Below, piece by piece: positions 22,420-59,399 of a stretch of DNA of 64,000 nucleotides. The translations under genes were made by a program, and so were the position numbers. The DNA is from Candidatus Micrarchaeota archaeon (GTDB taxonomy: Archaea; Micrarchaeota; Micrarchaeia; Anstonellales; Bilamarchaeaceae). The stretch spans positions 3,502 to 67,501 of the forward strand of contig JBDRLQ010000007.1 of assembly GCA_043812915.1 (NCBI GenBank), in the 5' to 3' direction. The notes beneath the pieces are model-generated. The model had not been told where the DNA came from. It saw only the letters and a program-made list of their open reading frames with translations, and ran no database searches. Within the stretch, counting starts at the first letter, position 1, and every line of letters begins with the position of its first letter.

Positions 22420-22420
22420 A

Positions 22421-23644: not shown

Positions 23645-23723
23645 GGACTTTCTATGCAATCGCAGAATAATAAATGTTTTGAGCACAGTCGCCCTATAAA
23701 GCTTTTAAACTTTTAACTTTTCT

Positions 23724-26700: not shown

Positions 26701-27101
26701 GATACTGCTCGAATCCAAATCCGGGATATTACTGCTTCTATGGGGAGCTTATTGAGGATGAGGAATGCATCGGCAGCTGTGCCGATGGCACGCCCAACGG
26801 CTACTGCTCATATTCAAAGGATGCGTACGCCTGCTGGGATGGGCTGCTCAAGCCGGACGATTACTGCGCCAGCTCTTATGATGAGGATACGGACTGCCAG
26901 GACGGCACTGAGCACGGCTCCTGCTCGAACTCCAACCCTGGATACTTCTGCTGGTCTGGAGGGCTGCTTGAGGATGAGGAATGCATCGGCAGCTGCGAGG
27001 ATGGGACACCCAACGGCTACTGCTCATATTCAAAGGATGCATACGCCTGCTGGGGCGGGGCGCTTGAGCCTGACGAGTATTGCACCGGGGCTTTCCAGTA
27101 G
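23724..27101 (+). CDS. secreted clostripain-like (peptidase C11) cysteine protease with Cys-rich N-terminus and 11 C-terminal 4-Cys modules
   Basis: Lipobox LMALSGC. WTFIVYLDADNNLE, VIIWDHGAGW (His) and IIGFDACLNGMHE (Cys) fit the C11 catalytic dyad. The C-terminal 395 aa are repeats. Confidence 0.8.
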   Translation: MLPMRSLPFLALALALLMALSGCMDVCPESCDDYNPCTDDFCSSRTNYHCAHMRLDGAQGSCFGSVPGEQCQRYSCVAGSCMIQEQLGCVPDNGDDDDGSTTVTGEADWTFIVYLDADNNLESAGLIDFNEMEAAGSTDDVNILVQMDRIEESDYYLGYDSSNGDWADARRFYIVQDTDMDRMRKSELEALGEVNMGAGATLKEFLLWAVEEYPAKHYAVIIWDHGAGWDYSASGYEEYGMVAFDDTSGGDGITLAELGSALSAMKDKIGRKIDIIGFDACLNGMHEIDYEIADYAHIRIASEELVPGDGWDYRNSLSALVVNPGMSREELATTIVTDFERFYVLSGEDEMITLSAVDLGKVGTLSSAIDEFSATIAGRMSGQTATEVGRARAYVEEYGNDEYGFIDITDFAKIMHDVTQDPDIKASAKKVVEAHDDSIIAEIHGNGRSHSYGRSIYFPRTSSVYVSNYRTDSRFSTETAWDAFLRSYYTGQTADLSAPTVRGMSASSDTVSAESPMEITATVSGNQIADVQLEVYMEGDPEYGDYIVLLNYLPYSSPSFMLGDGSTIPFWLDGDNPLEIKWNGYGIAVEDDEGYLFIPLEPVERGSQYYFISGEYTQKGAISPVYASLVFDFDTGALEYVWDHENVMELQPNKGDRFSAYIYIIDFDEDDEYYVPWTELIYGETGFNLGYYPLPAGGYYLNLVAEDIAGNTQSDSIYITVGDYVETGYECYDGTIDGYCSYISPGYYCEAGELAYDEFCLESLTCMDGTPDGFCSFDYDGYMCTGGTLEYSSECLDSNFCYDGTPIGECSYFYNGYLCADGDFVLDEACYDEFYTDECSDGTMNGFCSNENPGYYCFFGELLDDPECVGSCPDGTPNEYCSFTMEGYSCYDGVLKADESCVESYGSETGCQDGTQHGYCSLLYDGYWCNNGELEYEDSCLAGDYGLDCPDGTEHGYCSDANPGYGCWDGFLEEYAECGAVLDYDCPDGTLSGYCSNPNPGYYCFYGELIEDEECIGSCADGTPNGYCSYSKDAYACWDGLLKPDDYCASSYDEDTDCQDGTEHGSCSNSNPGYFCWSGGLLEDEECIGSCEDGTPNGYCSYSKDAYACWGGALEPDEYCTGAFQ
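25913..27098 (+). repeat. Eleven tandem ~33-39-aa modules C-x-DGT-x2-G-x-CS-x4-GY-x-C-x2-G-x-L-x4-5-C inside the C11 protease gene
   Basis: Modules start CYDGTIDG, CMDGTPDG, CYDGTPIG, CSDGTMNG, CPDGTPNE, CQDGTQHG, CPDGTEHG, CPDGTLSG, CADGTPNG, CQDGTEHG, CEDGTPNG. Segments 26754-26841 and 26970-27057 are about 93% identical at the DNA level by eye. Confidence 0.85.
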
Positions 27102-29580: not shown

Positions 29581-30405
29581 ATGACAAAGACAATATTATT
29601 GCTATTGGTATTCGGGCTCCTGTTCTTCGGATGCACAGCGCCTCCGGAGACCTCGGCGCCTGAACAGGTGGAAGCTCCAGCCGGGCCAGGGTCACCGCAT
29701 CCTGAGCCTGGAGTCTCACCGGAACCGGAGCCTGAAACTGCTCCTGAGCCTGAGGTGCCCCCAGAAGCGCCTGAGGATGGCACGCTCATCCCAGCTCATC
29801 CCCAAGGAACGCAGGTCCTGATGACTGGCCGTTCTGTGGCCTACTACTGGACTGAATACATGGGCCTTGAGTGGACTTGCGATGACGAGGAGTGCGCAAC
29901 AGGCAGCCCGAGGGGCAACTATGATGACTATTATTTCATCTACTACGAGCTTGAGTATCCCCCGGATATCGCAAGGTCCGCCGCTGACGCGGTCGACATG
30001 TACGGCGGCGATGCAGAAGTGGTCTTCTTCAAGTTCTGCTTCGTTGATTTCGCGGCTGACGACTCCCTTCAGAACGCATATGACAATGAGGGGCTGATAG
30101 AGGATGTCTACCAGTATGTTGTAGTTGAGCGGGGCAAGAAGCTCATAATAGGGAACGCTTTGCCCCAGGTCCGGGCGCACACCGAGCCCGCTTTGGTCGC
30201 CAACCACCGGGAATTCAACGCATGGCTTGACAATTTCGCGGCGACGCACGGCAATGTGCAGGTTCTTGACCTGAATGGCATGCTCACGGACAGCTCAGGA
30301 AACCTGATGAGCGAGTATGCGGTTTCGGCTGATGACTCGCACCTGAACAGCAACGGCTACGCGAGAATCACTCCGGAATTCCTTGAGCTTATCGAGAGCG
30401 CTTAA
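29581..30405 (+). CDS. secreted lipoprotein, tentatively SGNH/GDSL-like hydrolase fold
   Basis: Lipobox LLFFGC, Pro/Glu-rich linker. C-terminal DDSHLNSNGY resembles SGNH block V (DxxH). Other blocks are not clear. Confidence 0.4.
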   Translation: MTKTILLLLVFGLLFFGCTAPPETSAPEQVEAPAGPGSPHPEPGVSPEPEPETAPEPEVPPEAPEDGTLIPAHPQGTQVLMTGRSVAYYWTEYMGLEWTCDDEECATGSPRGNYDDYYFIYYELEYPPDIARSAADAVDMYGGDAEVVFFKFCFVDFAADDSLQNAYDNEGLIEDVYQYVVVERGKKLIIGNALPQVRAHTEPALVANHREFNAWLDNFAATHGNVQVLDLNGMLTDSSGNLMSEYAVSADDSHLNSNGYARITPEFLELIESA

Positions 30406-30864: not shown

Positions 30865-31206
30865 TTACTCCTGGTCTGTAGGAGTTTCGATGTCAAGCCC
30901 CTCGTCTTCCAGCGGCTGGTCCGTATCTATCTGGAAGAGATCCGCCAGCTTCTCCTCATCTGTTTCAGATGGGGGCAGCTCTACTGGTCCTGGCCCCTCA
31001 GGAACCGTCAGGTTTTCAGGCTCGGCTGGAGGCGCATCAGGCTCCGGAGTCTCCGGGACCGCGTCGGGCGCGGCTTCAGGAACTTCGCCAGCAGGGCCAA
31101 GCTCCCCTTCCGGAGACAAGGTGGTATCCGGCTCTGCCTTCTTGGCGCATCCAAAGAGCACCAGGGACATTCCCAGCACCAGCAAAAGCATCAGTTTCGT
31201 GTTCAT
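30865..31206 (-). CDS. small secreted acidic Pro/Glu-rich lipoprotein (hypothetical)
   Basis: Lipobox LVLFGC, then low-complexity PEAAPDAVPETPEPDAPPAEPE. ATGA overlap with the upstream gene. Confidence 0.6.
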   Translation of the reverse strand: MNTKLMLLLVLGMSLVLFGCAKKAEPDTTLSPEGELGPAGEVPEAAPDAVPETPEPDAPPAEPENLTVPEGPGPVELPPSETDEEKLADLFQIDTDQPLEDEGLDIETPTDQE

Positions 31207-32123
31207 GAGAAAATCCCCCCAAGTATCTTCATTCTTATGCCGTTGAAGTCATCGAACAGGTCCAGGGAGTCTTCCCAGCACTCGAAGTTCTGCCCTCCGT
31301 ATTCGCCAAGGTCATCAACTTCGGCGGAATACTCACAGTCTGCAAGACTATCCTCAATGTCGCCCTCAAGCTGGTCCATATCCTCGAGAACCTCCTCCTT
31401 GTTGGAGTTGCTGCTAGCCTCTATCATGGGCCTTGCGTAATCGATTGTCGAGAGCATCTTCTGCATCCTGAAAAGAAGAAGAATCCTGGAGTGGCGAAGG
31501 TACAGCGCCCTAATCTCACTTGTCTCCCCCGAGTCGAATGCCCGGTCGATGTCCGCCTCCAGTTCATCTCCGTATCCGATTACCTCTACCATGCCATCTG
31601 TGTTGGCCCCGAGCCTGTCGAGCTCGTCAACCTGGTCATTGGCATAGCGAATCTCATTCCCGACATACTTCTTGGAAGCGGTCCGCTCCTGCTCCATGGC
31701 ATTATGCTTGCAGTCTTCCAGGTCATCCATGAGCGGCTTCTCATCATCCCTTACGCATGAGAAGAAATGCATGTTCTTGTGTCCGTCAAAGGCATCCCCC
31801 AGGAGCGCCCCAAGCAGGCGGACTGAGTGCCCACCGTACTGGAACATCGCAACGCCGAACTCGAACTGGTCATCTTCGTCAGCGGCTTCCTTCAGGTCAG
31901 CAAGGTCTTCCCTTATGTCTTCCATGTGCTCTGATGAGTCGAAGACGCTGGCGTTGTTCCTGTGCCCGCAGCCTTCCCTCATGGAGAGCCATTCCTCCGC
32001 ATAGTCCACGTTGCATGCCGCGTATTGGTATCTGGCCTGCAGCATTTCGCCTGTTGCTTCATTGGTCCAGGCGAACGAGAAGGTCGACATCGCGACAAGC
32101 ACGAATAGTATAACAAATTTCAT
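31203..32123 (-). CDS. secreted acidic helical protein (hypothetical)
   Basis: Signal peptide MKFVILFVLVAMSTFSFA, highly D/E-rich, several paired Cys. No family recognised. Confidence 0.6.
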   Translation of the reverse strand: MKFVILFVLVAMSTFSFAWTNEATGEMLQARYQYAACNVDYAEEWLSMREGCGHRNNASVFDSSEHMEDIREDLADLKEAADEDDQFEFGVAMFQYGGHSVRLLGALLGDAFDGHKNMHFFSCVRDDEKPLMDDLEDCKHNAMEQERTASKKYVGNEIRYANDQVDELDRLGANTDGMVEVIGYGDELEADIDRAFDSGETSEIRALYLRHSRILLLFRMQKMLSTIDYARPMIEASSNSNKEEVLEDMDQLEGDIEDSLADCEYSAEVDDLGEYGGQNFECWEDSLDLFDDFNGIRMKILGGIFS

Positions 32124-46647: not shown

Positions 46648-48840
46648 TCACTCCATGAAGAACTGCGGAGTGGGCGGCTCTGGCCTCTCGCCTTTCCTTT
46701 CGCGAATCTGGGCGACCACTTTGGGGACGATGTCCCTTGGGACCGGCCAGTACCCGGCATATTCCTGGTACCAGATTGCCCTTCCCTGGGTAACTCCGCG
46801 CAGGTCGTTCGCGAATCCGAACATCTCGCCAACAGGGAGGAGCGTTGTGATGACTGCGTTCTCCCCCTCCTGCTCCATGCCCTCAAGCTGGCCTCTCCTT
46901 CCGTTGGTGAGCGTAATAACGTCACCGGAGTACTCCTGCAGGGTGTTGATGAGCACTTTCTGCCTCGGCTCAATGAGCGTCACCCCTCCTGTTAGCAAGG
47001 CGGCATAAATCGGCCTTCTCACAGCGGGCAGCATCTGCGCGGGCCCCCTGTGGATGTTGTCCTCGTGCAGAGTGGCATCGACAAGGGTGACCTTCACCCC
47101 TGTCATCTTCTCCTTTGCCAGCGGGCCTGCGTTCAGGCACTCCTCGAATCCCTGAATCATCAGCTCCTCGACTTCATTGAGGTACTGGATGCCCTTGGTC
47201 GCGTTCACGAAGATGCTGGAGTTGTAAATGTCGTAAATCTTCCTGGCCTCGTCACGGTCCATGCCGAGCTCGACAAGCTTTTCCCACACCTCTCTTCCCT
47301 TTGGCCTTCCAGCGGGAATATCTCCGCTGTCCAGTGCTTTCTTGAGCTCATCGCTCAGAGGCTCCACAGTGAACTTGAGCTTGTTGTGCTTGTTCGGCGA
47401 CTTGCCCTCAATCGGGCCTGCAGGGCCGATAAGGGCCTCCTGGTACACGACAATCGGAGGAGAAGTGATAATCGGAATCTTCTTCTCGTTCTTTATCTTG
47501 TACTCGATGATTTCCAGGTGCAGCTCGCCGTTTCCGGATACCAGGTGCTCACCTGTCTCCTGGTTGAGGTGGACCTTGATTGTCGGATCCTCCTTCGAGA
47601 TGCTCCTCAAAGCCTCGATGAGTTTCGGCAGGTCCTTCTGCTCCTTCACTTCAATCGACTTGGTGATGACCGGCTCTGAGTAGTGCTTTATTGACTCGAA
47701 CGGCTCAATCGGGTCTGTTGAAAGCGTCTCACCGACATATACGTCCTTCAGGCCGACTATTGCTCCGATGTTGCCCGCGCTTACCCGTTCTGCCTGAACC
47801 CTGTCCGGGCCCATGAAGATACCGACCTGCTGTGCCTTTGCCTTGATTTTCTTGGAAGCGATATAGAGCTCGGTGCTCTTCTGGACAGTCCCGGAGAACA
47901 TGCGGACGACTGCGACTTCTCCAGCATGCTCGTCATAGACCACACCGAAGCAGACACCGACCGCCTTTCCATTCTTGTCACATGCCCTCATGCTCTTTCC
48001 TTCTTCCGACTCCTGGTCCCCGTTCTTCCAGAGCACTTCGGTCCTGTACTGCTGCGCGTTCTTTGGAGAGGGCAGGTGCGTGATAATCATCTCGAGCAGC
48101 ACCTCGTCAAGGGGGCTCCTCTCCACAAGCCACTTGTGGTCTTCCGCCGCGCACCGGTCGTAAATCTCCTTGAACGATATGTTGAACTTGGTCATGGACT
48201 TGACCGAAATGGCCCACTTGTGGTAGGCGGTACCAAAGGCGACGTTGCCCTTGGCCACCCCGATTGCCCATTCCTCTGCCTTTTCCTTAGGCGCGTTCGC
48301 GCGGATAATCTTATTGACCTGGTTGATTACCTTGACGAATCTCTCCTGCATGGCGGTCGCGTCAAGCTTCATCTCATTAATCAGCCGGTCCACCTTGTTG
48401 ATGAAGATGACTGGTTTTGCCCTCTCCTTCAGAGCCTGCCTAAGATTGGTCTCTGTCTGGGGCATAACTCCCTCGACAGCGTCCACAACGAGGCAGACGC
48501 CGTCAACCGCGCGCATGGCGCGCACCACGTGGAAACCGAAGTCCACGTGCCCTGGAGTGTCAATCAGGTTAATAAGGTAGTCCTTGCCCTCATGCTTGAA
48601 TCCAAGCGAGATGTTCGCGGACTTGATTGTGATTCCTCTCTGCTGCTCCTGTTCGTCGAAGTCGGTCCATCTCTGGGCTCCTGCGAGCTCCTTCGAGATC
48701 AGTCCTGCCCTTGCGACGAGGGAGTCTGTCATCGTGGTCTTACCATGGTCAACGTGCGCTACGATAGCCACGTTACGGACAAAATCCGTGTTGTCCATCA
48801 GCTTCTGCACTTCCTCAACTACAGCTTCCTTTCTAGCCAT
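46648..48840 (-). CDS. fusA: translation elongation factor 2 (aEF-2)
   Basis: AHVDHGKTT, DTPGHVDF, NKVDR. Diphthamide-loop region HEDNIHRGPAQ. SD GGTGAA before MARKEAVV. Confidence 0.95.
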   Translation of the reverse strand: MARKEAVVEEVQKLMDNTDFVRNVAIVAHVDHGKTTMTDSLVARAGLISKELAGAQRWTDFDEQEQQRGITIKSANISLGFKHEGKDYLINLIDTPGHVDFGFHVVRAMRAVDGVCLVVDAVEGVMPQTETNLRQALKERAKPVIFINKVDRLINEMKLDATAMQERFVKVINQVNKIIRANAPKEKAEEWAIGVAKGNVAFGTAYHKWAISVKSMTKFNISFKEIYDRCAAEDHKWLVERSPLDEVLLEMIITHLPSPKNAQQYRTEVLWKNGDQESEEGKSMRACDKNGKAVGVCFGVVYDEHAGEVAVVRMFSGTVQKSTELYIASKKIKAKAQQVGIFMGPDRVQAERVSAGNIGAIVGLKDVYVGETLSTDPIEPFESIKHYSEPVITKSIEVKEQKDLPKLIEALRSISKEDPTIKVHLNQETGEHLVSGNGELHLEIIEYKIKNEKKIPIITSPPIVVYQEALIGPAGPIEGKSPNKHNKLKFTVEPLSDELKKALDSGDIPAGRPKGREVWEKLVELGMDRDEARKIYDIYNSSIFVNATKGIQYLNEVEELMIQGFEECLNAGPLAKEKMTGVKVTLVDATLHEDNIHRGPAQMLPAVRRPIYAALLTGGVTLIEPRQKVLINTLQEYSGDVITLTNGRRGQLEGMEQEGENAVITTLLPVGEMFGFANDLRGVTQGRAIWYQEYAGYWPVPRDIVPKVVAQIRERKGERPEPPTPQFFME

Positions 48841-48942
48841 AAATTTCACCGAATAAAGAGACGTAAAACTCTTCCTCTTAGCTTCCAATTTGGAGAGAAA
48901 CTAATATAAAGATATGGCGGCGGATTACCGCCCTAAAATCCA

Positions 48943-50184
48943 CTATGCGGCCTGCATAATGCCCTCTGGCGCCTGGCCCGGGGCTCCCCGGTATATCAGG
49001 GAGGCATTCAACAAAATCCTGCCATTCCAGCGGGGGTTCCTGAGCGTGCTTCCGATTTCCCTGAGGCCTGCCGCGATCTCATACGCTTCCCGGTGCATCC
49101 CATCTCGGTAGAGCTCAAGCGCGGTCTTGAGTATCCATTCCTCCTGGGCGAGCACTATGCCATTGAACCTGTCGTCCTGGGCGCACATCTGCCTTGCATT
49201 ATCAAGGGTCTCAAGAACCGCCACGAACCCGTTATCCAGCATCCTCTTCCGGTCGCCGGTCATCTCAAACAGGCTGGCAGCTTCCCTGTGCTTGCCCGAC
49301 ATCGCAGCCGCCTCGGCTATCTCATGCACTTCGACTGCCATGTTGAAACCAAGCAGATGCTCTCCGGCCTCAAGGAATCTACCTCCCCTCAGCATTTCCG
49401 AAGCGCTTTCCATAGCCTCCGCCTTCCTGCATTTCGCCTCTGCCCCGCAGAGCCTGATTAGCCCATAGAGCTCTGCCGCAAGGCCAAACCTCTCGGCCCC
49501 CTCGCAGATTTCAGCCAGCTGGAACACGTGATGCTTCTTCCTCTGGAATCTCATCTCCCTTGCATATTCTAGTATTTCCTCATCCTTGAAGTCTGCCAGC
49601 AGCTTTGGGTTGGGCTGCTTGTACATCTCATTGTATTTCACAACCCCCCGAAGGCCAGAGTTCCACCTGACGACGTTCACCGCCATTTCGTGGTTCCCTT
49701 CGGATTGGAGCCTGTCCACCAGGCCGAAGAATGCATCCTCGTTCCTGGTTAACATATAGACGTTTGCAGCATCCCTGGAATTCCCACGCTGCTCGAAATC
49801 GAATCCGACCATGGCCGCTTCCTGCACCCAGCCCATCTCAATGAATATCGCGACTGCCTGCAAATCCAGCATGTCGGCTTCTAAGGGGTCCATATTCGTG
49901 CCATCCTCGCGAATAAGGGCGGCCTGCTTCCTAAGTTCGAGCGCCTCCACCTTCATCTTCCTGTAATCCTCTGCGCGCTCCCCGCCTCCATTGCGCGTTG
50001 GCAAAGACCAGAGGCCAGAATCCAGATTCACCCTCTGCTTGCTAACCTGCGGCCTGCTTATCCTGTCTGGCTCCGGCTTCCTCCTGAAGACTGAGGCTAC
50101 TGCGCTAATCATGCCCTTGATTGTGATGGGTGTTGTGAGTATCTCCTTTGCTTTCTGCATCCTGGTTCTCTGGATTGTCTGCAT
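48943..50184 (-). CDS. alpha-helical repeat (TPR-like?) protein, hypothetical
   Basis: Long ORF rich in paired helices (A/E/L/R-rich). No catalytic motif recognised. Confidence 0.55.
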   Translation of the reverse strand: MQTIQRTRMQKAKEILTTPITIKGMISAVASVFRRKPEPDRISRPQVSKQRVNLDSGLWSLPTRNGGGERAEDYRKMKVEALELRKQAALIREDGTNMDPLEADMLDLQAVAIFIEMGWVQEAAMVGFDFEQRGNSRDAANVYMLTRNEDAFFGLVDRLQSEGNHEMAVNVVRWNSGLRGVVKYNEMYKQPNPKLLADFKDEEILEYAREMRFQRKKHHVFQLAEICEGAERFGLAAELYGLIRLCGAEAKCRKAEAMESASEMLRGGRFLEAGEHLLGFNMAVEVHEIAEAAAMSGKHREAASLFEMTGDRKRMLDNGFVAVLETLDNARQMCAQDDRFNGIVLAQEEWILKTALELYRDGMHREAYEIAAGLREIGSTLRNPRWNGRILLNASLIYRGAPGQAPEGIMQAA

Positions 50185-50399
50185 GTGGTCACCTGTAACT
50201 TTTCCGGGTGATTACAATAATTGCATTGTTTAAATATTTTTCGCCCGGCCCGGAACCCCCAACCGGTTCATCTGAAAGCAAAAAACCCTACGCTTTTTGC
50301 CGAAGTGGGGTTAAACTAATGTCATGTTTTTAAACCCTATCCATAAACTTATCCTCAAACTTTTTCCAATGAAAAAACCATGCAGAAAGAGTGGTATCA

Positions 50400-52313
50400 A
50401 TGGCGTCAGTAACTGAAAAAATACTGAAGGAACATATTGTGGAAGGGGAATGGAAGACGGGAGAGGAAATAGGAATCAAAATAGACCAGACCCTCACCCA
50501 GGATGCGACAGGAACGATGGCGTACCTCGAATTCGAGGCGATGGGCAAGCCCAAGGTGGATACCGAGCTGTCAGTTTCCTATGTCGACCACAATATGCTG
50601 CAGACCGACTTCAAGAACGCGGATGACCATGATTATCTGAAAACGGTCGCGGCCAAATACGGCGTATTATATTCAAGGGCGGGAAACGGGATCTGCCACC
50701 AGGTGCACCTTGAGAGGTTCGCCAGGCCCGGAAAGACCCTGCTCGGCTCCGACTCGCACACCCCGACGGCAGGGGGCATGGGCGAAATCGCGATAGGTGC
50801 GGGGGGCCTTGATGTCGCTGTCGCAATGGGCGGGGGGAGATTCTATCTTAATACCCCCAAAGTAGTCGGGGTGAAACTCAGCGGAAAGCTCAGGCCATGG
50901 GTTTCCGCCAAGGATGTGATACTTGAGATGCTCAGGAGGCTTGATGTCAAGGGCGGAGTGGGGAAGGTCTTCGAATACTTCGGCCCGGGCGCCGAGACCC
51001 TGAGTGTCCCTGAGCGGGCGACCATCACCAACATGGGTGCGGAGCTGGGCGCCACAACCTCAATTTTCCCATCGGATGCTATCACAAAGAGATACCTGGA
51101 GAGCCAGGATAGGGGCGGCCAGTTCGTTGAGATCAAAGGAGATTCCGAATCTGATTATGACGAGATTATCGAACTTGATTTGGGCGCTGTGGAGCCCCTC
51201 GTCTCGAAGCCCTCCAGCCCTGGCAATGTGGGCACGGTAAAGGAGATGGAAGGCACTAAGGTGAACCAGGTTATTGTGGGCTCATGCACGAACTCTTCAT
51301 TCCGCGACCTGATGATTGTCGCCAAAGTCCTCAAGGGAAAGAAGGTGCACAAGGACGTCTCCTTCTGTGTCCTGCCAGGCTCAAGGCAGGTATACTCGAT
51401 GATTGCGAGGAACGGCGCTCTTGCTGACCTTATCGCCTCCGGGGCAAGAATTCTGGAATCGGCATGCGGGCCGTGCATCGGCATGGGGCAGGCCCCAAGG
51501 AGCGGGGGCGTAACTGTCCGCACGTTCAATCGGAACTTCAAGGGGCGCTGCGGCACGAAGGACGCTGATGCGTACCTCTGCAGCCCTGAGACTGCGGCCG
51601 CAATAGCGATAAACGGGGAATTCACCTCGCCTGACAAGCTCGGGCAGTTCCCGGTTATAGATGATGAGATGCCCGTGATTGACGATTCAATGATTGTGAA
51701 GCCGCCTGAAGATGGCTCGTCGGTTGAAATCAAGAGGGGCCCGAACATCAAGCCGCTCCCGGAGATGAAGGCTCTGGAGGATGAGATTTCCAGGGAAGTG
51801 CTGATAAAGGTCGGGGACAACATAACAACAGACCACATCATGCCCGCTGGCGCGCAGATACTTCCTCTAAGAAGCAACATCCCGGCGATCTCCGAGTTCG
51901 TGTTCTCACAGGTGGACAAGGAGTTCCCGGCGAGGGCGAAGGAGAAGAACGGCGGCTTCATAATCGGAGGGGAGAACTATGGCCAGGGTTCCAGCCGTGA
52001 GCACGCGGCAATCGCCCCACTATATCTTGGGGTAAAGGCGGTCATCGCAAAGAACTGGGCAAGAATACACAAGAGCAACCTTGTGAATTTCGGCATCGTC
52101 CCGCTCGATTTCGAGAATCCAGCCGACTACGACAGGATAGAGCAGGGGGATGTCCTTGAGATAAAGGGCCTTCGGGACGGGGTGAAGAATGGCCGAGTCA
52201 CGATAAAGGATGTCACAAAGGGCTTCGAGTTCAAGGCAAAGACCGAACTGTCCGAAAGGGCCGCTAACGTGCTGCTCGAAGGCGGAACGATTAATTTCAC
52301 AAAGAAAAAGTAA
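50400..52313 (+). CDS. acn: aconitate hydratase, ~640-aa 'Aquifex-type' aconitase
   Basis: [36 protein letters not shown] (cluster ligands), C-terminal swivel domain [14 protein letters not shown]. Confidence 0.9.
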
Positions 52314-52332
52314 TGATTTTGCAGGTGAAACT

Positions 52333-53559
52333 ATGGAAGAGAAAGGAGAGAAAATCAGGAAGGAAAATGGAAAGCTCGTTGTCCCGGACACCCCCATCAT
52401 CCCATACATAGAGGGGGATGGGGTGGGTATTGACATTACTCCTGTCATGATTAAGGTAGTCGATGCCGCGGTTGAGAAGGCATATGGCGGAGATAGGAAA
52501 ATCGCATGGAAGAAGATTTACGCCGGTCAGGAGGCAAAGGACAAGTTCGACAACTACCTGCCCGATGAAACCATCCAGGCAATCAAGGACCATTTAGTTG
52601 CAATCAAGGGCCCGCTCACAACTCCGGTGGGTGGCGGAATCAGGAGCCTGAATGTTACAATGCGCCAGGTGATGGACCTATATTCTTGCGTGAGGCCGGT
52701 CAAATGGTATGAAGGCACTCCGGCTCCGGTCAAGGAGCCGAACAAGCTCGATGTTGTAGTCTTCAGGGAAAACACTGAGGATGTATACGCCGGAATCGAA
52801 TGGAAGGAAGGAACAGAGGAATGCAAGAAGGTCATCAGCTTCCTGAACAACGAGATGGGGAAGGATGTGCGCCGGGATTCCGGAATCGGTGTGAAGCCTA
52901 TTTCAATTACCGGCACCAAGAGGCTGGTCGCCTCCGCAATCCAGTATGCCATTGACCACAACAGGCGCTCGGTCACCCTCGTCCACAAGGGCAATATCAT
53001 GAAGTTCACCGAAGGTGCTTTCAGGGAATGGGGATATCAGGTGGCCCAGGAGCAGTTCGGGGAGAGGACCGTGACGGAGAAGGAAGTTACTGAGAGCCAT
53101 GGCGGCAAGGTGCCGGATGGTAAAATCCTAATCAATGACAGGATTGCCGATGCCATGTTCCAGCAGGTGCTGCTCAGGCCCGATGAATATGATGTGATTG
53201 CGACCCCCAACCTGAACGGCGACTACATATCCGATGCGTGCGCTGCGCAGGTCGGAGGGCTTGGGATGGCGCCTGGCGCGAACATCAACTATACTACTGG
53301 TGTCGCCCTATTCGAGGCGACTCACGGAACCGCGCCAAAGCACGCCGGCCAGGACAAGGTCAACCCGGGCTCGCTCATCCTATCAGCAACCATGATGCTC
53401 CAGTACCTTGGATGGGAAGAGGCTGCGAAGCTGGTTGAGAAGGGGCTCGCCAAAGCAATCAGCTCAAAGAATGTCACCTATGACCTTGAGAGGCAGATTG
53501 AGGGGGCGAGGCTCCTCAAGTGCTCAGAATTCGGGGATGCGATAATCGGCAACATGTGA
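52333..53559 (+). CDS. icd: isocitrate dehydrogenase (NADP-type, prokaryotic homodimeric family)
   Basis: [72 protein letters not shown]. Confidence 0.9.
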
Positions 53560-53578
53560 AGACAAGGGGAGAAGAGCT

Positions 53579-54859
53579 ATGGCAAGGAGAAAATTACGCG
53601 AATACGATGCCAAGAGGCTGCTTGCTGAGAACATGAAGGAGGCAAGCGATGGAGAGCTGCAGTATGTTTCCACATGCGTGCAGGTCGCCCAGGACACCGA
53701 CATGGACAAGCTCGGGAAGGAGAACGCTTGGCTCAAAAGCATGAAGCTGGTTGTGAAACCCGACATGCTCTTTGGCCGCCGGGGAAAGAACAACCTCATC
53801 CTCCTCAACGCCTCGTGGGAGGAAGCCAAAAAATTCATCAGGGAGAAGATGAATTCAGAGGTTGAAATCCGCGGCGTTAAGGGCGCCCTTACGCACTTCC
53901 TTGTGGAGCCTTTCGTTCCGCACAATGAAGAGTATTATTTCTCCATCCTCTCCAAGAGGGATGAGGATGCCATAAGCTTCTCTGTCGCAGGCGGAATGGA
54001 TGTCGAGGAGAACTGGGAGAAGATGGTGCATGTAACAGTGCCAACTGGCGGGGAGCCCGACGCCAAGGAGATTGAGAAGGGCCTTTCGAACCTGTCCGAG
54101 GAAAAGAGGGCCAAGACAGCGATATTCATCCAGTCATGCTACAGGGTATTCCGGGACCTGGACTTCACCCTTATGGAGTTCAATCCTTTCACCTATGATG
54201 AGGATGGAAGCCCGTTTCCCCTTGACATGCGGGGGGAGCTGGATGATACTGCCGAGTTCAAGGACTGGAAGAAATGGGGCAAGATAGATTTCCCAAGGCC
54301 CTTTGGAAGGAAACTCTATCCTGAGGAGCAGTTCGTCTCTGAGCTGGACAGCAAGAGCGGCTCTTCCCTGAAGCTTACCCTGCTCAATCCGGAGGGAAGG
54401 ATATGGACAATGGTTGCCGGCGGGGGCGCCTCAGTCATCTATGCCGACACCATTGTTGATTTAGGGATGGGGCACGAACTGGCCAACTATGGCGAGTACA
54501 GCGGAGATCCGAACGCCGAGGAGACTTATCTTTATGCCAAGACGCTCCTGGACCTTGCGACAAGGAACGCGGACGGCAAGCCCCGCGCATTGATAATAGG
54601 AGGGGGAATCGCGAACTTCACTGATGTGGCCAAGACATTTACAGGAATCATCCGGGCGCTTAGGGAATATAAGGACAAGATGAAGGCCGCCGGAATCAGG
54701 ATATACGTGCGGAGGGGCGGCCCGAACTATCAGACCGGGCTTAAGCTAATGAGGGGGCTTGGAAACGAGCTTGGAATCCCGATAGAGGTGCATGGCCCCG
54801 AGGCGCAGATGACCAACATCGTGCCGATGGCTATCGATTATGTCAAGGGAGGTGCTTGA
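53579..54859 (+). CDS. aclB: ATP-citrate lyase, small (beta, ATP-grasp) subunit
   Basis: MARRKLREYDAKRLL, VVKPDMLFGRRGK, FLVEPFVPHNEEYY, LDMRGELDDTAEFK, RIWTMVAGGGASVIYADT, IGGGIANFTDVA. Collinear with plant ACLA / the human ACLY N-terminus as I remember them. Confidence 0.88.
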   Translation: MARRKLREYDAKRLLAENMKEASDGELQYVSTCVQVAQDTDMDKLGKENAWLKSMKLVVKPDMLFGRRGKNNLILLNASWEEAKKFIREKMNSEVEIRGVKGALTHFLVEPFVPHNEEYYFSILSKRDEDAISFSVAGGMDVEENWEKMVHVTVPTGGEPDAKEIEKGLSNLSEEKRAKTAIFIQSCYRVFRDLDFTLMEFNPFTYDEDGSPFPLDMRGELDDTAEFKDWKKWGKIDFPRPFGRKLYPEEQFVSELDSKSGSSLKLTLLNPEGRIWTMVAGGGASVIYADTIVDLGMGHELANYGEYSGDPNAEETYLYAKTLLDLATRNADGKPRALIIGGGIANFTDVAKTFTGIIRALREYKDKMKAAGIRIYVRRGGPNYQTGLKLMRGLGNELGIPIEVHGPEAQMTNIVPMAIDYVKGGA

Positions 54860-54860
54860 G

Positions 54861-56693
54861 ATGGAGGACTACAGGCTATTTTCAAAGGACACACAGGCGC
54901 TGATATACAATTTCAAGCCGAATCCTGTGCAGAGGATGCTTGATTTCGATTATATCTGCAGGCGGGCGAAGCCAAGCATCGCGGGCCTTATCGCGCCTGG
55001 CAGGAACGGGTTCCACAAGGCATTCTTCGGGGGAAAGGAAATCCTGCTTCCGATCTATTCTTCTATTGATGCCGCGGCGACAAAGCATCCGAAGGCGGAT
55101 GTGCTCATCAACTTCGCATCTTTCAGGAGCGCGCACGATTCCACAAAATCGGCCCTGGAGCAGGAGGGAATCCGGACCGTTGTGATAATCGCGGAAGGGG
55201 TTCCTGAGAGGCAGATAAAGGATTTGACCGCATTTGCCAAAGAGAACAATAAGATTATCATCGGCCCGGCGACGGTCGGGGGAGTGCAGGCAGGAGCCTT
55301 CAAGATTGGCAACACCGCGGGCACTGTGGACAATATCATTGCATGCAAGCTCCACCGGCCTGGCTCGGTCGGATTCGTATCCAAGTCTGGGGGACTCTCG
55401 AACGAGATGTACAACATGCTCGCGATGACCACCGACGGCCTTTATGAGGGAATCGCGATTGGCGGGGATGCTTTCCCTGGCACGAACCTGCTCGACCATG
55501 TTTTAAGATTCGAGAAGATGCCCGAGGTGAAGATGATTGTCCTCCTTGGGGAGCTGGGCGGCCGTGAGGAGTACAGCATCGTTGAGGCCAAGAAGGAAGG
55601 GAAGATAACAAAGCCGGTGGTCGCCTGGGTCACCGGGACATGCGCCAAAGTTTTCCCGTCCGAAGTGCAGTTCGGGCATGCGGGCGCCAAGAGCGGCTCC
55701 GAGACAGAAACCGCTGAAGCCAAGAACAAGGCCCTGAAGGAAGCGGGGATAGCGGTGCCGGATTCCTTCGAGGACTTCGGCAAGAAAATCAATGAGACAT
55801 ATAAGGGCCTTGTGAAGGACGGGACAATCAAGCCCGCTCAAGAGGTTGCGCCACCCGAGCTTCCGGTGGATTTCAATGCCGCAATCAAGAGCGGCGCGGT
55901 TAGGAAGCCGACTTCATTCGTGTGCACAATATCGGATGACCGCGGGGAGGAGGTTACTTACGGCGGGGTGCCGATAAGCACAATCATCGAGGAGGACTAC
56001 GGTCTTGGGGATGTAATCTCCCTTCTGTGGTTTCGGAAAAAGCTTCCTCCCTACGCGTCAAAATTCATTGAGAAGGTGCTGATGATTGCGGCGGACCATG
56101 GGCCCTGCGTTTCAGGCGCCCACAACGCGATTGTGGCGTCAAGGGCAGGCAAGGACCTGATGTCCTGCCTGGCTTCAGGGATACTGACAATCGGCCCGAG
56201 ATTCGGAGGTGCAATCGATGATGCCGCCAGATACTTCAAGGACGCCTGCGACCGCGGGCTTTCACCCGACGAGTTCGTAGAAGAGATGAAATCAAGGAAC
56301 ATAAGGATTCCGGGCATCGGCCACAGGATAAAGAGCGCCAAGAACCCTGACAAGCGGGTGGAGCTGCTCAAGAAATACGCGAAGGAGAACTTCCCGCAGA
56401 CGAAATACCTGGACTTCGCGCTGTCCGTCGAGCAGGAGACGCTTAAGAAGGCCAACAACCTCATCCTGAATGTCGATGGCTGCATCGGCATCCTGTTCGT
56501 GGACCTCATGAGCAGCTGCGGGGCCTTTAGCAAGGAGGAGATTGATGATGTCCTCAAGGTCGGCTACCTGAACGGGCTATTCGTCCTGGCAAGAAGCATC
56601 GGAATGATTGGCCACATAATCGACCAGAAGAGGTTGCAGCAGCCCCTTTATCGCCATCCATATGATGACGTGCTCTTCCCTGAGGAAGAGTAA
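54861..56693 (+). CDS. aclA: ATP-citrate lyase, large (alpha) subunit with CoA-binding, phosphohistidine and citryl-CoA lyase modules
   Basis: PVQRMLDFDYICRR, GPATVGG, SKSGGLSNE, VQFGHAGA (catalytic His), ADHGPCVSGAHN, GHRIKSAKNPDKRVELL, LNGLFVLARSIG, YRHPYDDV. SD GGAGGTG. 1-nt gap after aclB. Confidence 0.88.
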   Translation: MEDYRLFSKDTQALIYNFKPNPVQRMLDFDYICRRAKPSIAGLIAPGRNGFHKAFFGGKEILLPIYSSIDAAATKHPKADVLINFASFRSAHDSTKSALEQEGIRTVVIIAEGVPERQIKDLTAFAKENNKIIIGPATVGGVQAGAFKIGNTAGTVDNIIACKLHRPGSVGFVSKSGGLSNEMYNMLAMTTDGLYEGIAIGGDAFPGTNLLDHVLRFEKMPEVKMIVLLGELGGREEYSIVEAKKEGKITKPVVAWVTGTCAKVFPSEVQFGHAGAKSGSETETAEAKNKALKEAGIAVPDSFEDFGKKINETYKGLVKDGTIKPAQEVAPPELPVDFNAAIKSGAVRKPTSFVCTISDDRGEEVTYGGVPISTIIEEDYGLGDVISLLWFRKKLPPYASKFIEKVLMIAADHGPCVSGAHNAIVASRAGKDLMSCLASGILTIGPRFGGAIDDAARYFKDACDRGLSPDEFVEEMKSRNIRIPGIGHRIKSAKNPDKRVELLKKYAKENFPQTKYLDFALSVEQETLKKANNLILNVDGCIGILFVDLMSSCGAFSKEEIDDVLKVGYLNGLFVLARSIGMIGHIIDQKRLQQPLYRHPYDDVLFPEEE

Positions 56694-56706
56694 TTTCCCC
56701 TTTTTA

Positions 56707-57285
56707 TTATCCGAATTCATCTAGGTTGACCTGGTGGAAAATCCGCCCCTCCCTCTTTTCCGGCTCAGATAGGAGTTCCTGCCTCATAAATCTGTTCATC
56801 ATTCTTTCCATGACCTTGTCCGGAATATAGCTAATCCTGCCGCATCCGGTCGTCTTGCAGAGTTCGACAATCGCGTAGAACAGGTATTCGCTGATTCCGC
56901 ACCCATGTTTCCTGGCAAAAGCGAGTGACATCTTTTCATCGCTTGATACAGCGACAAGATTGATGGCGTTGCCCTGCCTTTCGAATTCCCAGGCGCCGAC
57001 AACCTGGCTCCCCTCTAGCATCGCGACCCCCTCGCGGCACGCGCATGGGACATAATGCCTGCACGAGCGGAGCAATCTTTCTTTCTCTTCCTTCTGCTCA
57101 TGGTCCAGGCTGGAAGCTGGAACAATGGAATAGCCCTTGGGCACATGGACGAAAGAAATCGAGTGCCTGAGCGCAATCGCCTGCATCGTTTCCCTCACAC
57201 ACGCCCCCGGTGATAATGCGAATTTCAGGATTTTTCCAAGCGGGGACCCGAAAATGTCCTGGTATTTCTGGACCAGCGCTTTCAT
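56707..57285 (-). CDS. hypothetical protein (possible GNAT-like fold)
   Basis: Start MKALVQKY chosen. Segment LAFARKHGCGISEYLFYAIVELCK weakly resembles the GNAT acetyl-CoA motif A. Low certainty. Confidence 0.45.
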   Translation of the reverse strand: MKALVQKYQDIFGSPLGKILKFALSPGACVRETMQAIALRHSISFVHVPKGYSIVPASSLDHEQKEEKERLLRSCRHYVPCACREGVAMLEGSQVVGAWEFERQGNAINLVAVSSDEKMSLAFARKHGCGISEYLFYAIVELCKTTGCGRISYIPDKVMERMMNRFMRQELLSEPEKREGRIFHQVNLDEFG

Positions 57286-57424
57286 TCCGCACCCCCTTTC
57301 CGGGCACCCTAGCGTCCGCCTACCAGCTTTAATCATGGCAATCGCATATTCTATTGCAGGAACTAGCTTTTAAAACATTTTTTTTGCTAATATGTAACAG
57401 GAAAACAGGCACAAGGGCGGTCTA

Positions 57425-58246
57425 ATGATTCAGGCAAAAAATTCTGTCGGGGCTGATGGAAAGCGGTTGAGGTTCAGCGGCAATGCTTGCGACCTTTCAG
57501 GAACTCTTCTTGTCAGGCGGGGCTCTAAACGGCCATTCCATATTGCCGCGGGGATGGGCAACCATCTTGAGGAACCAATAAATGGTGTGGCGCTGGCACC
57601 ATGCGTCAACCTCTCTTCCAAAAAACTTACTGGGTTGGCGCTATCCGCGGACAACAAGTTCGACGCCGGAATTGACGGCCTTTCCCTTGCTATCTTCTCC
57701 CAGGCAGCAAGAGGCCGGGTAAGGGGAGCTTCCATCGGTCTTTGGGGAACCTTAGCAAAGGAAGTATCCGGGGTATCCGCCAGCCTGTGCGCCTCCTTTG
57801 TACCGGGCAATGTGCGGGGAATATCATTTTCAACTGCACTTAATGTGGCGGGCCTTGAGAAGCACATGCGGGAAGGTGTGAAAACCGAAGAGGTGTGCGG
57901 CGATATAAAAGGAGTTGCCTTCGGCGGCTGCGTGAATTTTTCATCAAGCACGGCAGGATTCGCTTTCGGCGGCCTCTTCAATGATGTCATTGGAAACCTT
58001 AAGGGAGTCGCGGCAGGCCTTATCACAAGGGTGAGGGGGGCCGCCCAAGGGCTCATCCTCTCATGCGTTGGAACGTGCAAAAGCTTCAGCGGAGTTATGG
58101 TCGGCATTGTCAATATCTGTGAGGAGCGGTCCTCAGGAATTCAGATTGGTCTCCTGAACATACGGAAGGACGCTCCATGGTTCGCAAAGGCGATTCCAGG
58201 AATGGCGGTAAGGCTCAGGAGGGCCGATTATGAAAAAAAGGATTGA
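57425..58246 (+). CDS. Gly/Val/Ala-rich ~19-22-aa repeat protein (beta-solenoid-like; hypothetical)
   Basis: Recurrent G-[VIL]-[AS]-[LFI]-[AGS] units (INGVALAP, LTGLALSA, IDGLSLAI, VRGASIGL, VSGVSASL, VRGISFST, IKGVAFGG, TAGFAFGG, LKGVAAGL, AQGLILSC, FSGVMVGI, SSGIQIGLLN). Confidence 0.6.
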   Translation: MIQAKNSVGADGKRLRFSGNACDLSGTLLVRRGSKRPFHIAAGMGNHLEEPINGVALAPCVNLSSKKLTGLALSADNKFDAGIDGLSLAIFSQAARGRVRGASIGLWGTLAKEVSGVSASLCASFVPGNVRGISFSTALNVAGLEKHMREGVKTEEVCGDIKGVAFGGCVNFSSSTAGFAFGGLFNDVIGNLKGVAAGLITRVRGAAQGLILSCVGTCKSFSGVMVGIVNICEERSSGIQIGLLNIRKDAPWFAKAIPGMAVRLRRADYEKKD

Positions 58247-58281: not shown

Positions 58282-58887
58282 TTATCTTGCACTCCTTGCC
58301 ATCCTTTCTGTTTCGTCTCTCTTCTTGATGGCGTAGCTTGTCTGCACATCGCCTTTTGCGGTGTTGATTATCTCGCCCGCAAGGGCCTCGGAGAGCGATT
58401 TCGACTTGTTGAAGCATCCCATAAGTGCCGCAAGCGCGATGTTGCGGAGCGCCATGTCAAGCCTTCTGGTTGCTGAAACGTCAACTGCGATCTGGTAGCT
58501 CACGCCACCATAGGAAACACGCGTGACATCCTCCCTCGGGGCCGAGTTCTCCACCGCACGGACAAGCATCTGCACCGGGTTCTCCTTGCTCTCCTTCTCC
58601 ACGATTTCGAAGGCATCCTCAACAATCCTGAGGACCTTGAGCTTCTTTCCCTGCAGCCTTCCCTGGGTCCTGATGACCTTGCCGGATGTCTTCTCGCCGG
58701 TTCCGCCCCTCATAAGCTTGTTTGCGAGCCTTTCCACGAGGTTGAGCTGGGTCTTTCCAAGAGCCTTCTTGGAGAACCTTCCCGAGGAGTGGGGGACGTT
58801 CACTGCCTTCATATTAATTACCTGGGCAATGCTCCTGTCCTTAACCTCGACTTTATCAAGTTCGTACTTACCGAAAAGCTTGTCCAT
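58282..58887 (-). CDS. rps7: 30S ribosomal protein S7 (uS7)
   Basis: LVERLANKLMRGG...KLKVLRIVEDAFEIV...VSYQIAVDVSATRRLDMALRNI. Confidence 0.95.
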   Translation of the reverse strand: MDKLFGKYELDKVEVKDRSIAQVINMKAVNVPHSSGRFSKKALGKTQLNLVERLANKLMRGGTGEKTSGKVIRTQGRLQGKKLKVLRIVEDAFEIVEKESKENPVQMLVRAVENSAPREDVTRVSYGGVSYQIAVDVSATRRLDMALRNIALAALMGCFNKSKSLSEALAGEIINTAKGDVQTSYAIKKRDETERMARSAR

Positions 58888-58892
58888 GATTA

Positions 58893-59318
58893 TCATCTCT
58901 TGGATTTCTCCTTCTTGCCCTTCCTGAGCATCTGGAGGTCGACTCCGTTCACGGCGACGACTTTGTACCTGATACCGGGAATCGAGCCCATCTGCCCTCT
59001 CTGGGAGCCTCCCAGGCCGGCGATGGTGATTTCGTCGTGCTCATCAATGAAGGTGATCGCCTTGTCTCTCGGCGCGAAAGCGCCTACTACCTTGCCGGAA
59101 AAGAGCTGGCACCTGACACACTTAATGAGCCCGGAGTGCGGCTGCTTCTGCTCGAGCGTGATTTTCTCGAGCACAATCGCTTTTGCCTGCGGCGCGCCCC
59201 TTAGGGGGTCGAATTTATCCTTGAGGTTGAGGGCTCTCCTCTTCCACCTTTTGGACAACCAGCGTGTCTTCTTCCTTTTTCTTTCTGTGTTTCTTCCTGC
59301 GAATTCTCCATTACCCAT
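58893..59318 (-). CDS. rps12: 30S ribosomal protein S12 (uS12)
   Basis: [32 protein letters not shown]...[21 protein letters not shown] before MGNGEFAG. Confidence 0.95.
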
Positions 59319-59399
59319 AGGAGCACCTAAGCTATATAGTTGATAAATCAACCGAATGAGCAGCCTAATCAAATCAAATGCGAGAAAGGCTTTTTAAGG

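Follow-up and report, generated by a model that had tools for sequence, protein, structure and literature searches.

Crystal structures of a two-subunit archaeal ATP-citrate lyase (ACL) have been determined for the enzyme of Methanothrix concilii, a member of the Methanotrichaceae (ACLY-A/B, pdb entries 6HXI and 6ZNW; Verschueren et al. 2019, Nature 568:571). In eukaryotes such as Arabidopsis the heteromeric enzyme consists of ACLA and ACLB (Fatland et al. 2002) with about 423 and 608 residues. The two subunits are encoded by unlinked nuclear genes, and the enzyme cleaves mitochondria-derived citrate in the cytosol. AclBA of Chlorobium limicola/tepidum (6HXJ) catalyzes the same reaction with two subunits and a fused lyase module, and works within a complete autotrophic cycle. 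Citryl-CoA synthetase (CCS, 6HXQ) and citryl-CoA lyase (CCL, 6HXP) of Hydrogenobacter thermophilus as well as succinyl-CoA synthetase (SCS, SucCD) are built from homologous ATP-grasp, CoA-ligase and citrate-synthase-like folds. In the CCS/CCL system, however, the lyase is a separate protein of ~260 residues, and SucCD contains no lyase. For ANME-1 and ANME-2c, anaerobic archaea without a full tricarboxylic acid (TCA) cycle, ACL together with aconitase and isocitrate dehydrogenase (IDH) has been proposed as a route to 2-oxoglutarate, with ACL producing ATP (Chadwick et al. 2022, PMC9012536). Here we describe a probable operon with the same enzyme set at positions 50400–56693 of a 64-kb stretch of Micrarchaeota DNA. 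This whole stretch is called the window in the following. The three enzymes would form a self-contained shunt between acetyl-CoA plus oxaloacetate and 2-oxoglutarate, in which ACL most likely stands in for citrate synthase in the synthesis of glutamate precursors. A complete autotrophic cycle is unlikely.

The locus comprises four consecutive open reading frames (ORFs) on the + strand. They are separated by gaps of 19, 19 and 1 nt, as read from the junction sequences. The first gene, acn (50400–52313), codes for a predicted aconitate hydratase of 637 residues, of the short single-chain NF005558/TIGR01342 type. It is followed 19 nt past its stop codon by icd (52333–53559), whose product is a predicted homodimeric-type NADP-IDH of 408 residues. 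The ACL small subunit (53579–54859, 426 residues) contains an ATP-grasp and a citrate-binding domain. The large subunit (54861–56693, 610 residues) combines a CoA-binding/CoA-ligase module, including the phosphohistidine loop, with a C-terminal citryl-CoA-lyase/citrate-synthase-homology module. The ACL genes are adjacent and co-oriented, with a strong Shine-Dalgarno (SD)-like motif (GGAGGTG) before the second one. Such motifs also precede icd (GGTGA) and the small subunit gene (GGGGAG), whereas only a weak GAGTGG is found upstream of acn. The names aclB for the small and aclA for the large subunit, used in an earlier note on this DNA, follow Chlorobium usage. In plant and M. concilii usage the small subunit is ACLA and the large subunit ACLB.

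Family models, matches to solved structures and conserved catalytic residues agree in identifying the last two genes as ACL. The small subunit matches the Pfam domains Citrate_synth_N (PF24948, 248 bits, cut-off 83) and Citrate_bind (PF16114, 282 bits, cut-off 26.8). In the large subunit CoA_binding, Ligase_CoA and Citrate_synt (PF00285, residues 392–598) are all present in one chain, which scores 91+77 bits against curated family models. Within the PDB, the small subunit aligns over its full length to 6HXI_A from M. concilii (502 bits, E = 1.8e-149) and to the N-terminal half of human ACLY (residues 1–425; 379 bits, E = 3e-112). The match to Chlorobium AclBA reaches 171 bits, that to the CCS large subunit 6HXQ_B 54 bits (E = 1e-13), and those to succinyl-CoA synthetases at most 35 bits (SCS-beta with an E-value of ~1e-7). 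The large subunit matches 6HXI_B with 871 bits (E = 4.3e-261), residues 491–1093 of human ACLY with 773 bits and Chlorobium AclA with 421 bits, compared with 89 bits for the Hydrogenobacter CCS small subunit, 55 bits for CCL and at most 118 bits for SCS-alpha. Thus, the scores for 6HXI and human ACLY are ~7–10 times those of any SCS, CCS or CCL chain.

In the small subunit Gly309, Asn346, Phe347, Thr348 and Arg379 are identical to human ACLY and carry the same numbers. Gly309, Asn346, Thr348 and Arg379 are presumably citrate-site residues, as judged from the human ACLY-citrate structures 3MWD/3MWE. From residue 103 onward the numbering of the large subunit is offset by +487 with respect to full-length human ACLY. 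Glu112 (in IIAEGVPE) corresponds to the human catalytic Glu599 and His273 (in QFGHAGA) to the phosphohistidine His760. The lyase-module residues His413, Arg489, Asp539 and Arg578 correspond to His900, Arg976, Asp1026 and Arg1065, and Asp539 matches the position changed to Ala in 6ZNW. The roles of the human counterparts of these large-subunit residues, and that of the Phe347 gate, were taken from PMC10115795. No substitution was found at any residue checked, and with all of these conserved the enzyme is apparently catalytically competent.

As judged from these comparisons, the gene pair is a true heteromeric ATP-citrate lyase of the fused-lyase ACLA/ACLB type (EC 2.3.3.8). The earlier note had reached the same calls for aconitase, IDH and both ACL genes from the sequence alone, and curated models and PDB matches bear them out. 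All the peptides it quoted are present, namely MARRKLREYDAKRLL, VVKPDMLFGRRGK, FLVEPFVPHNEEYY and RIWTMVAGGGASVIYADT in the small subunit and GPATVGG, QFGHAGA, GHRIKS..NPDKRVELL and LNGLFVLARSIG in the large one. Its count of three genes with an SD is likewise correct, and so is its argument that the fused lyase sets the pair apart from CCS/CCL and SCS. The note had named two outcomes that would refute the ACL call, and neither was observed: in profile and PDB searches the pair groups with true ACL instead of succinyl-CoA or citryl-CoA synthetases, and the catalytic residues are not substituted.

One might suspect an SCS or citryl-CoA synthetase pair with a citrate-synthase-like tail instead, because public labels on the large subunit read "citrate/2-methylcitrate synthase" or "succinyl-CoA synthetase alpha subunit" and because weak sub-threshold matches to the SucC and SucD models exist. 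These matches amount to 86 bits for SucC (cut-off 375) and 146 bits for SucD (cut-off 336), however, and citryl-CoA lyase models reach ~73 bits against cut-offs of 193–261. ACL-specific Pfam domains lie above threshold, ACL structures score far higher than SCS, CCS or CCL, and the fused architecture is combined with every ACL catalytic residue. The probability of a non-ACL identity is thus practically negligible, and at the sequence level an SCS or citryl-CoA synthetase identity is already refuted. In particular, SucCD is ruled out by the missed equivalog thresholds together with the ACL-specific domains. The split citryl-CoA synthetase plus lyase system of the Aquificae type is ruled out by the fused lyase module and the missed CCL cut-offs.

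The public names themselves deserve a comment. The GenBank entry for the identical large-subunit protein is under-annotated ("citrate/2-methylcitrate synthase"), relatives go by the name "succinyl-CoA synthetase alpha subunit/citrate synthase", and even chain B of 6HXI bears the label "Succinyl-CoA ligase (ADP-forming) subunit alpha". Because of such misnaming, ACL large subunits are easily missed in keyword-based metabolic surveys. This may be the reason why no TCA components are reported in the Bilamarchaeum paper discussed below.

The two upstream genes were assigned in the same manner. The acn product scores 988 bits against NCBIfam NF005558 (cut-off 612) and 949 bits against TIGR01342 (cut-off 719) and contains the Pfam domains Aconitase and Aconitase_C. 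Among solved structures mitochondrial aconitase comes closest to it (352 bits). The motifs of the Fe-S ligands are intact, with SCTNS at residue 295 and CGPCIG at residue 356. By model score and Fe-S motifs it is a short single-chain aconitate hydratase, which agrees with the ~640-residue aconitase type that had been suggested for it. For icd, the equivalog score of 680 bits against TIGR00183 prok_nadp_idh (cut-off 567) marks the product as a predicted prokaryotic NADP-isocitrate dehydrogenase of the homodimeric type. It contains the Pfam domain Iso_dh, and its best solved relatives are NADP-IDH structures of the E. coli type (~563 bits). Taken together, the gene identities and the existence of a three-enzyme module are nearly certain.

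Among solved enzymes M. concilii ACLY-A/B is the closest to that of the window. The domain order is the same, the subunit genes are likewise adjacent and in the same order, and full-length, almost gap-free alignments give identities of 55.6% for the small and 60.7% for the large subunit. The QFGHAGA loop and the NVDGC motif with the aspartate mutated in 6ZNW are identical. The hosts differ (Methanotrichaceae versus DPANN Micrarchaeota), and so do the subclades of ACL to which the two enzymes belong. Moreover, the Methanotrichaceae ACL pair is followed by a ~420-residue LeuC/HacA-like gene, whereas the window pair is preceded by the 640-residue aconitase and by IDH. Chlorobium AclBA is much more distant than M. 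concilii (171/421 bits versus 502/871 bits), and for the complete autotrophic cycle in which it works the window gives no evidence. The eukaryotic enzyme has subunits of almost the same size as those in the window and is as close to the window protein as distant Micrarchaeota are, with identities of 66.8% for the large subunit (Arabidopsis) and 56–57% for the small subunit (Castanea, Acytostelium). Unlike the eukaryotic genes, those of the window are part of a prokaryotic operon that also contains acn and icd. The ANME-1/ANME-2c partial oxidative TCA branch (PMC9012536) shares with the window its enzyme set of ACL, aconitase and IDH. That case is also a genomic inference only, and lineage and lifestyle differ from those of the window host.

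The relationship to the eukaryotic enzyme was followed in neighbour-joining (NJ) trees with 100 bootstraps, comprising 67 sequences and 602 columns for the large and 71 sequences and 409 columns for the small subunit. In these trees the two-subunit eukaryotic ACL lies inside the Micrarchaeota clade, with bootstrap values of 97–100% for the joint clade and 90–91% for the nesting. The fused human ACLY groups with a Thermoplasmata-like set (91–100% support). The identities of the window large subunit are 67.1% to Bilamarchaeum, 66.8% to Arabidopsis ACLB, 63% to Asgard archaea, 61% to Methanothrix and 55% to human ACLY. By these trees and identities, Micrarchaeota ACL is the closest prokaryotic relative of plant-type ACLA/B. 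The link to eukaryotes is not new, since DPANN ACLA/B already stand beside eukaryotic ACLA/B in published maximum-likelihood trees (PMC11976288).

The distribution of this ACL type was surveyed with one genome per GTDB species, and neighbourhoods were taken from 82 loci; aclS and aclL denote the genes for the small and large subunit. At least 451 loci were found in Micrarchaeota, Methanotrichaceae, Bathyarchaeia, Thermoplasmata, Asgard archaea, Thermoproteota, Elusimicrobia, Anaerolineae, Syntrophia-like and other bacteria. Hence, the view that ACL is uncommon among described archaea is correct for cultured archaea but not for genome collections. Its occurrence in DPANN/Micrarchaeota was also reported before, ACL in Micrarchaeota being listed in a 2022 preprint, while the acidophilic ARMAN Micrarchaeota are reported to lack it. 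The enzyme type and the gene cluster are already known from many uncultured microbes, and the sequence itself is already in GenBank.

The order acn-icd-aclS-aclL recurs with different flanking genes in further Micrarchaeota loci (e.g. L002, on a 798-kb contig, L003, L004, L005 and L089), whose large subunits are 67–82% identical to that of the window. L005 belongs to Ca. Bilamarchaeum dharawalense LFW-283_2. Adjacency of aclS and aclL is kept in nearly all of the 82 loci. By neighbour clustering, an acn-family gene lies near the pair in ~50 of them, with a full-length ~640-residue aconitase in ~36 and a ~420-residue LeuC/HacA-like gene in the loci of Methanotrichaceae. An IDH-family gene is found nearby in ~30. 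Longest-ORF calling missed icd in L001 and L004, where spurious ORFs overlap it; tblastn shows that the gene is present in both.

Three non-orthologous kinds of IDH occupy the module, either between acn and aclS or directly after aclL. In Micrarchaeota (e.g. L002–L005) the order is acn, type I IDH, aclS, aclL. In metagenome-assembled genomes (MAGs) of Thermoplasmata-like archaea, Bacillota, Pseudomonadota and Elusimicrobium (L024, L034, L051, L059, L060, L068, L073, L082) a eukaryote-like type II NADP-IDH (NF006156, 642 bits) takes the same place. In Bathyarchaeia, Thermoproteota and others (L017, L030, L048, L050, L072) acn, aclS and aclL are followed by a distant gene of the IDH/IPMDH family. 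That an analogue can stand in for one component in the same position strongly supports the view that aconitase, IDH and ACL act as one module. In the type II IDH arrangement a divergent AMP-forming acetyl-CoA synthetase is often encoded upstream of the module, as in L024, L060 and L068.

Two variations on the theme were observed. The ~420-residue LeuC/HacA-like protein encoded after aclS-aclL in Methanotrichaceae (L019:9903–11129, L028:9899–11155, L037:9893–11146) is an aconitase-family large subunit with ~36% identity to the N-terminal part of the window aconitase, and the 640-residue aconitase is absent there. It could be a split aconitase serving the ACL module. Furthermore, some MAGs, probably bacterial, encode an ACL "large subunit" of 1020–1040 residues with an internal tandem duplication (Ligase_CoA-Citrate_synt-Ligase_CoA-Citrate_synt). 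The genes (L083:8001–11063, L084:8001–11123, L085:4327–7449; proteins P0012 and P0006, also P0003) adjoin a normal small subunit and in L084 also an IDH. Copy 1 keeps QFGHAGA but has degenerate lyase motifs (ADRDP for ADHGP and GHCTYS for GHRIKS). In copy 2 the N-terminal CoA-binding part is missing and the His loop is degenerate (KFGHMLV), but ADHGP, GHRIKS and NVDG are retained. From this pattern the duplicated protein looks like a pair of subfunctionalised halves.

Because of the 56–61% identity to the crystallised M. concilii enzyme and the conserved catalytic residues, a corresponding mechanism can be proposed for the window ACL. The ATP-grasp small subunit would bind ATP and citrate, and His273 of the large subunit would be phosphorylated. 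Citryl-phosphate and then citryl-CoA would be formed, and the latter would be interconverted with acetyl-CoA and oxaloacetate. The C-terminal citrate-synthase-like module presumably constitutes the oligomeric core. Together, the three enzymes would form a self-contained shunt: acetyl-CoA + oxaloacetate (+ ADP + Pi) <-> citrate <-> isocitrate <-> 2-oxoglutarate + CO2 (+ NADPH). According to our own calculation from textbook standard free energies, the three reactions taken together are no more than a few kJ/mol away from equilibrium. Consequently, the module would be a reversible shunt between acetyl-CoA plus oxaloacetate and 2-oxoglutarate plus CO2.

We propose that the operon serves mainly as an oxidative citrate branch, making 2-oxoglutarate for glutamate in a cell that probably lacks a complete TCA cycle. 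With ACL in the role of citrate synthase, the energy of the thioester would be saved as ATP, and at high CO2, NADPH and ATP the shunt would be able to reverse. Several observations make us lean to the citrate-forming direction. The three genes exactly match an "oxidative branch" set, and the ANME precedent is read likewise (Chadwick et al. 2022, PMC9012536). For Desulfobacter postgatei, ATP synthesis via ACL is reported by Moller et al. 1987, as cited in PMC9768450. The aceticlastic Methanotrichaceae, which make acetyl-CoA from acetate and have no obvious need for citrate cleavage, retain this ACL type. Finally, some lineages have an acetyl-CoA synthetase gene next to the module. As for the absence of a complete cycle, the LFWA-III Micrarchaeota are described as fermentative and without TCA-cycle and electron-transport components. 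They include the 95.7% complete Bilamarchaeum LFW-283_2, which has the same operon (L005).

The direction is nevertheless the least certain step of this proposal, and we give a net oxidative, citrate-forming flux an even chance. The net direction of the shunt cannot be read from sequence. With the exception of the Desulfobacter case, all well-characterised ACLs run in the cleavage direction, and plant ACLA/B, the closest eukaryotic relatives, cleave citrate for acetyl-CoA supply. The relative described as having no TCA cycle is only 67% identical in the large subunit, and the paper behind this statement evidently overlooked this very operon. In addition, co-transcription is deduced from spacing and synteny alone. 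These points weigh against the citrate branch, and if identity, module and direction are blended into one judgement, we consider the overall reading fairly probable.

The prevalence of cleavage among characterised ACLs also raises the possibility of a eukaryote-like net flux, in which IDH would carboxylate 2-oxoglutarate reductively, aconitase would isomerise the product, and ACL would consume ATP to cleave the resulting citrate. The 2-oxoglutarate could stem from glutamate or peptides, and imported citrate could feed the route as well. In this way a cell with few alternative sources of acetyl-CoA would obtain this compound (e.g. for mevalonate and isoprenoid lipids) together with oxaloacetate. 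Eukaryotic ACLA/B, the suppliers of cytosolic acetyl-CoA, branch with DPANN ACL in published trees (PMC11976288) and in our NJ trees. The LFWA-III Micrarchaeota are reported to possess KorAB/OforAB, with pyruvate:ferredoxin oxidoreductase (PFOR) not detectable. A scavenging of amino acids would also fit the large secreted clostripain-family peptidase and the other secreted or lipoprotein-like proteins encoded in the window. However, enzymes of the OforAB type often accept pyruvate, so that acetyl-CoA is perhaps available anyway, and IDH of the E. coli type favours oxidative decarboxylation. The linkage to acetyl-CoA synthetase and the acetate-fed Methanotrichaceae argue that at least some members work toward citrate, and among the window genes no citrate transporter lies beside the operon. 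On balance we regard net cleavage as rather unlikely. Still more doubtful is its strongest form, in which the operon would be the main acetyl-CoA route (glutamate to 2-oxoglutarate to citrate to acetyl-CoA and oxaloacetate) of respiration-less Micrarchaeota without PFOR or TCA cycle. If true, the function of eukaryotic ACL would have pre-existed in the donor lineage as a ready-made acn-icd-acl module.

A complete reductive TCA (rTCA) cycle, with the operon as its citrate-cleaving arm and an autotrophic host, is suggested by the fact that ACL is the classical marker of this cycle. Relatives encode 2-oxoglutarate:ferredoxin oxidoreductase, and the 2022 preprint counts Micrarchaeota as "theoretically capable of complete rTCA". 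The Micrarchaeota row of the preprint is, however, a phylum-level composite with accessions from different MAGs including ARMAN-2. This row, which is the only claim for a complete cycle in Micrarchaeota, therefore says nothing on any single genome. For the near-complete relative with the same operon KorAB is reported, but no other TCA components. Within the 64-kb window no TCA-cycle gene was found beyond acn, icd and the ACL pair, i.e. none for 2-oxoglutarate synthase, pyruvate synthase, fumarate reductase, fumarase, malate dehydrogenase or succinyl-CoA synthetase. Moreover, DPANN genomes of ~1 Mb are generally fermentative and depend on partners or scavenging, and the module is also shared by many evident heterotrophs and by aceticlastic methanogens. 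A complete cycle is thus very improbable, and the operon is not evidence of autotrophy. Of the roles offered in the earlier note, carbon fixation is accordingly weak. Its list, a reductive or bidirectional citrate branch or a citrate-cleaving supply of acetyl-CoA, was also incomplete, since the citrate-forming, ATP-yielding direction has a published precedent and is at least as likely.

Spacing and synteny indicate that the four genes are probably co-transcribed. A candidate archaeal promoter with the TATA-like box GTTTTTAAACCCTAT is located at 50326–50340 (+ strand), ~60–72 nt upstream of the acn ATG. Its core TTT(T/A)T(A/T)AA(C/A)CCTA(T/C) (TTTTTAAACCCTAT) is common to the regions preceding acn in four Micrarchaeota operons (those of the window, L003, L004 and L089). 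From this conservation and the resemblance to archaeal TATA boxes we infer that the element is the operon promoter. The sequence GTTAAACTAATGTCA at 50310–50324, just before the core, is common to the window and L004, and TTGCCGAAGT upstream of the operon is shared by the window and L003. The conserved upstream motifs span positions 50295–50340 in the window and 2456–2500 in L004 and may be binding sites for an operon regulator. Directly after the last stop codon a T-rich tract, TTTCCCCTTTTTATTATCC (56694–56712, + strand), is a candidate archaeal oligo-T terminator. It is situated in the short gap before the convergent gene 56707–57336 (- strand). A scan of the sequence for sigma-70 promoters and hairpin terminators gave counts not above those of shuffled sequence, these being bacterial models unsuited to an archaeon.

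The host assignment agrees with the other genes of the window. In GenBank, a "Candidatus Micrarchaeota archaeon" MAG (DPANN) encodes a protein that is 100% identical to the ACL large subunit. The locus is also found, 100% identical and with the same neighbours, on contig JBDRPU010000027.1 of assembly GCA_043826765.1 (Candidatus Micrarchaeota), and the start codons in the public annotation of the identical contig match the four ATG starts used here. Archaeal markers are a ribosomal-protein cluster with SecY and adenylate kinase at 33.3–41.9 kb, aEF-2 at 46648–48888 and S7/S12 at 58282–59372. The G+C content of the operon (0.548) is close to that of the window (0.533), and hence the operon is not a compositional island. 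The three genes flanking it, at 48943–50184 (-), 56707–57336 (-) and 57425–58246 (+), have no Pfam match. In L086, a 93%-identical relative, two unannotated genes of 348 (-) and 277 (+) residues lie between the ACL genes and S7/S12; the window ORFs in this interval have 209 and 273 residues.

The rest of the window encodes transporters, an Na+/H+ antiporter, methyltransferases, PolX and a NUDIX protein. One ORF codes for a secreted clostripain-family (Peptidase_C11) peptidase of 1125 residues and another for a protein with domains like those of purple acid phosphatase. N-termini resembling signal peptides or lipoboxes (…LLFFGC…, …LFGC…, …LSGC…) occur in several ORFs, including 10466–12172, 21049–23686, 23724–27101, 29581–30405 and 31203–32123, and several large ORFs of this secreted or lipobox type have no Pfam match. 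These N-termini and the peptidase fit the earlier impression of many secreted proteins. At 110–1596 (+) a gene with a 4Fe-4S ferredoxin domain adjoins one for a CbiA/ParA-type P-loop NTPase with an inserted 4Fe-4S domain. A radical-SAM gene at 1825–2589 lies nearby on the opposite strand, and no operon link to this pair was seen. Scans of the window for tRNA genes and Rfam families gave no matches.

The locus offers nothing new in kind; its main ideas are already published and will be no surprise to a specialist. In metagenome surveys, however, ACL is routinely taken as a marker of the autotrophic rTCA cycle, and the window is a clear case in which ACL belongs to an acn-idh-acl module of three enzymes and the host is unlikely to be autotrophic. 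Since this module is widespread among uncultured anaerobes, it is misleading to count ACL as "carbon fixation". The remaining interest lies in the direction of the module in DPANN cells without a TCA cycle and in the nearest prokaryotic relative of plant-type ACL. A Micrarchaeota ACL would lend itself well to measuring how reversible this enzyme class is, and hence to judging which function the eukaryotes inherited.

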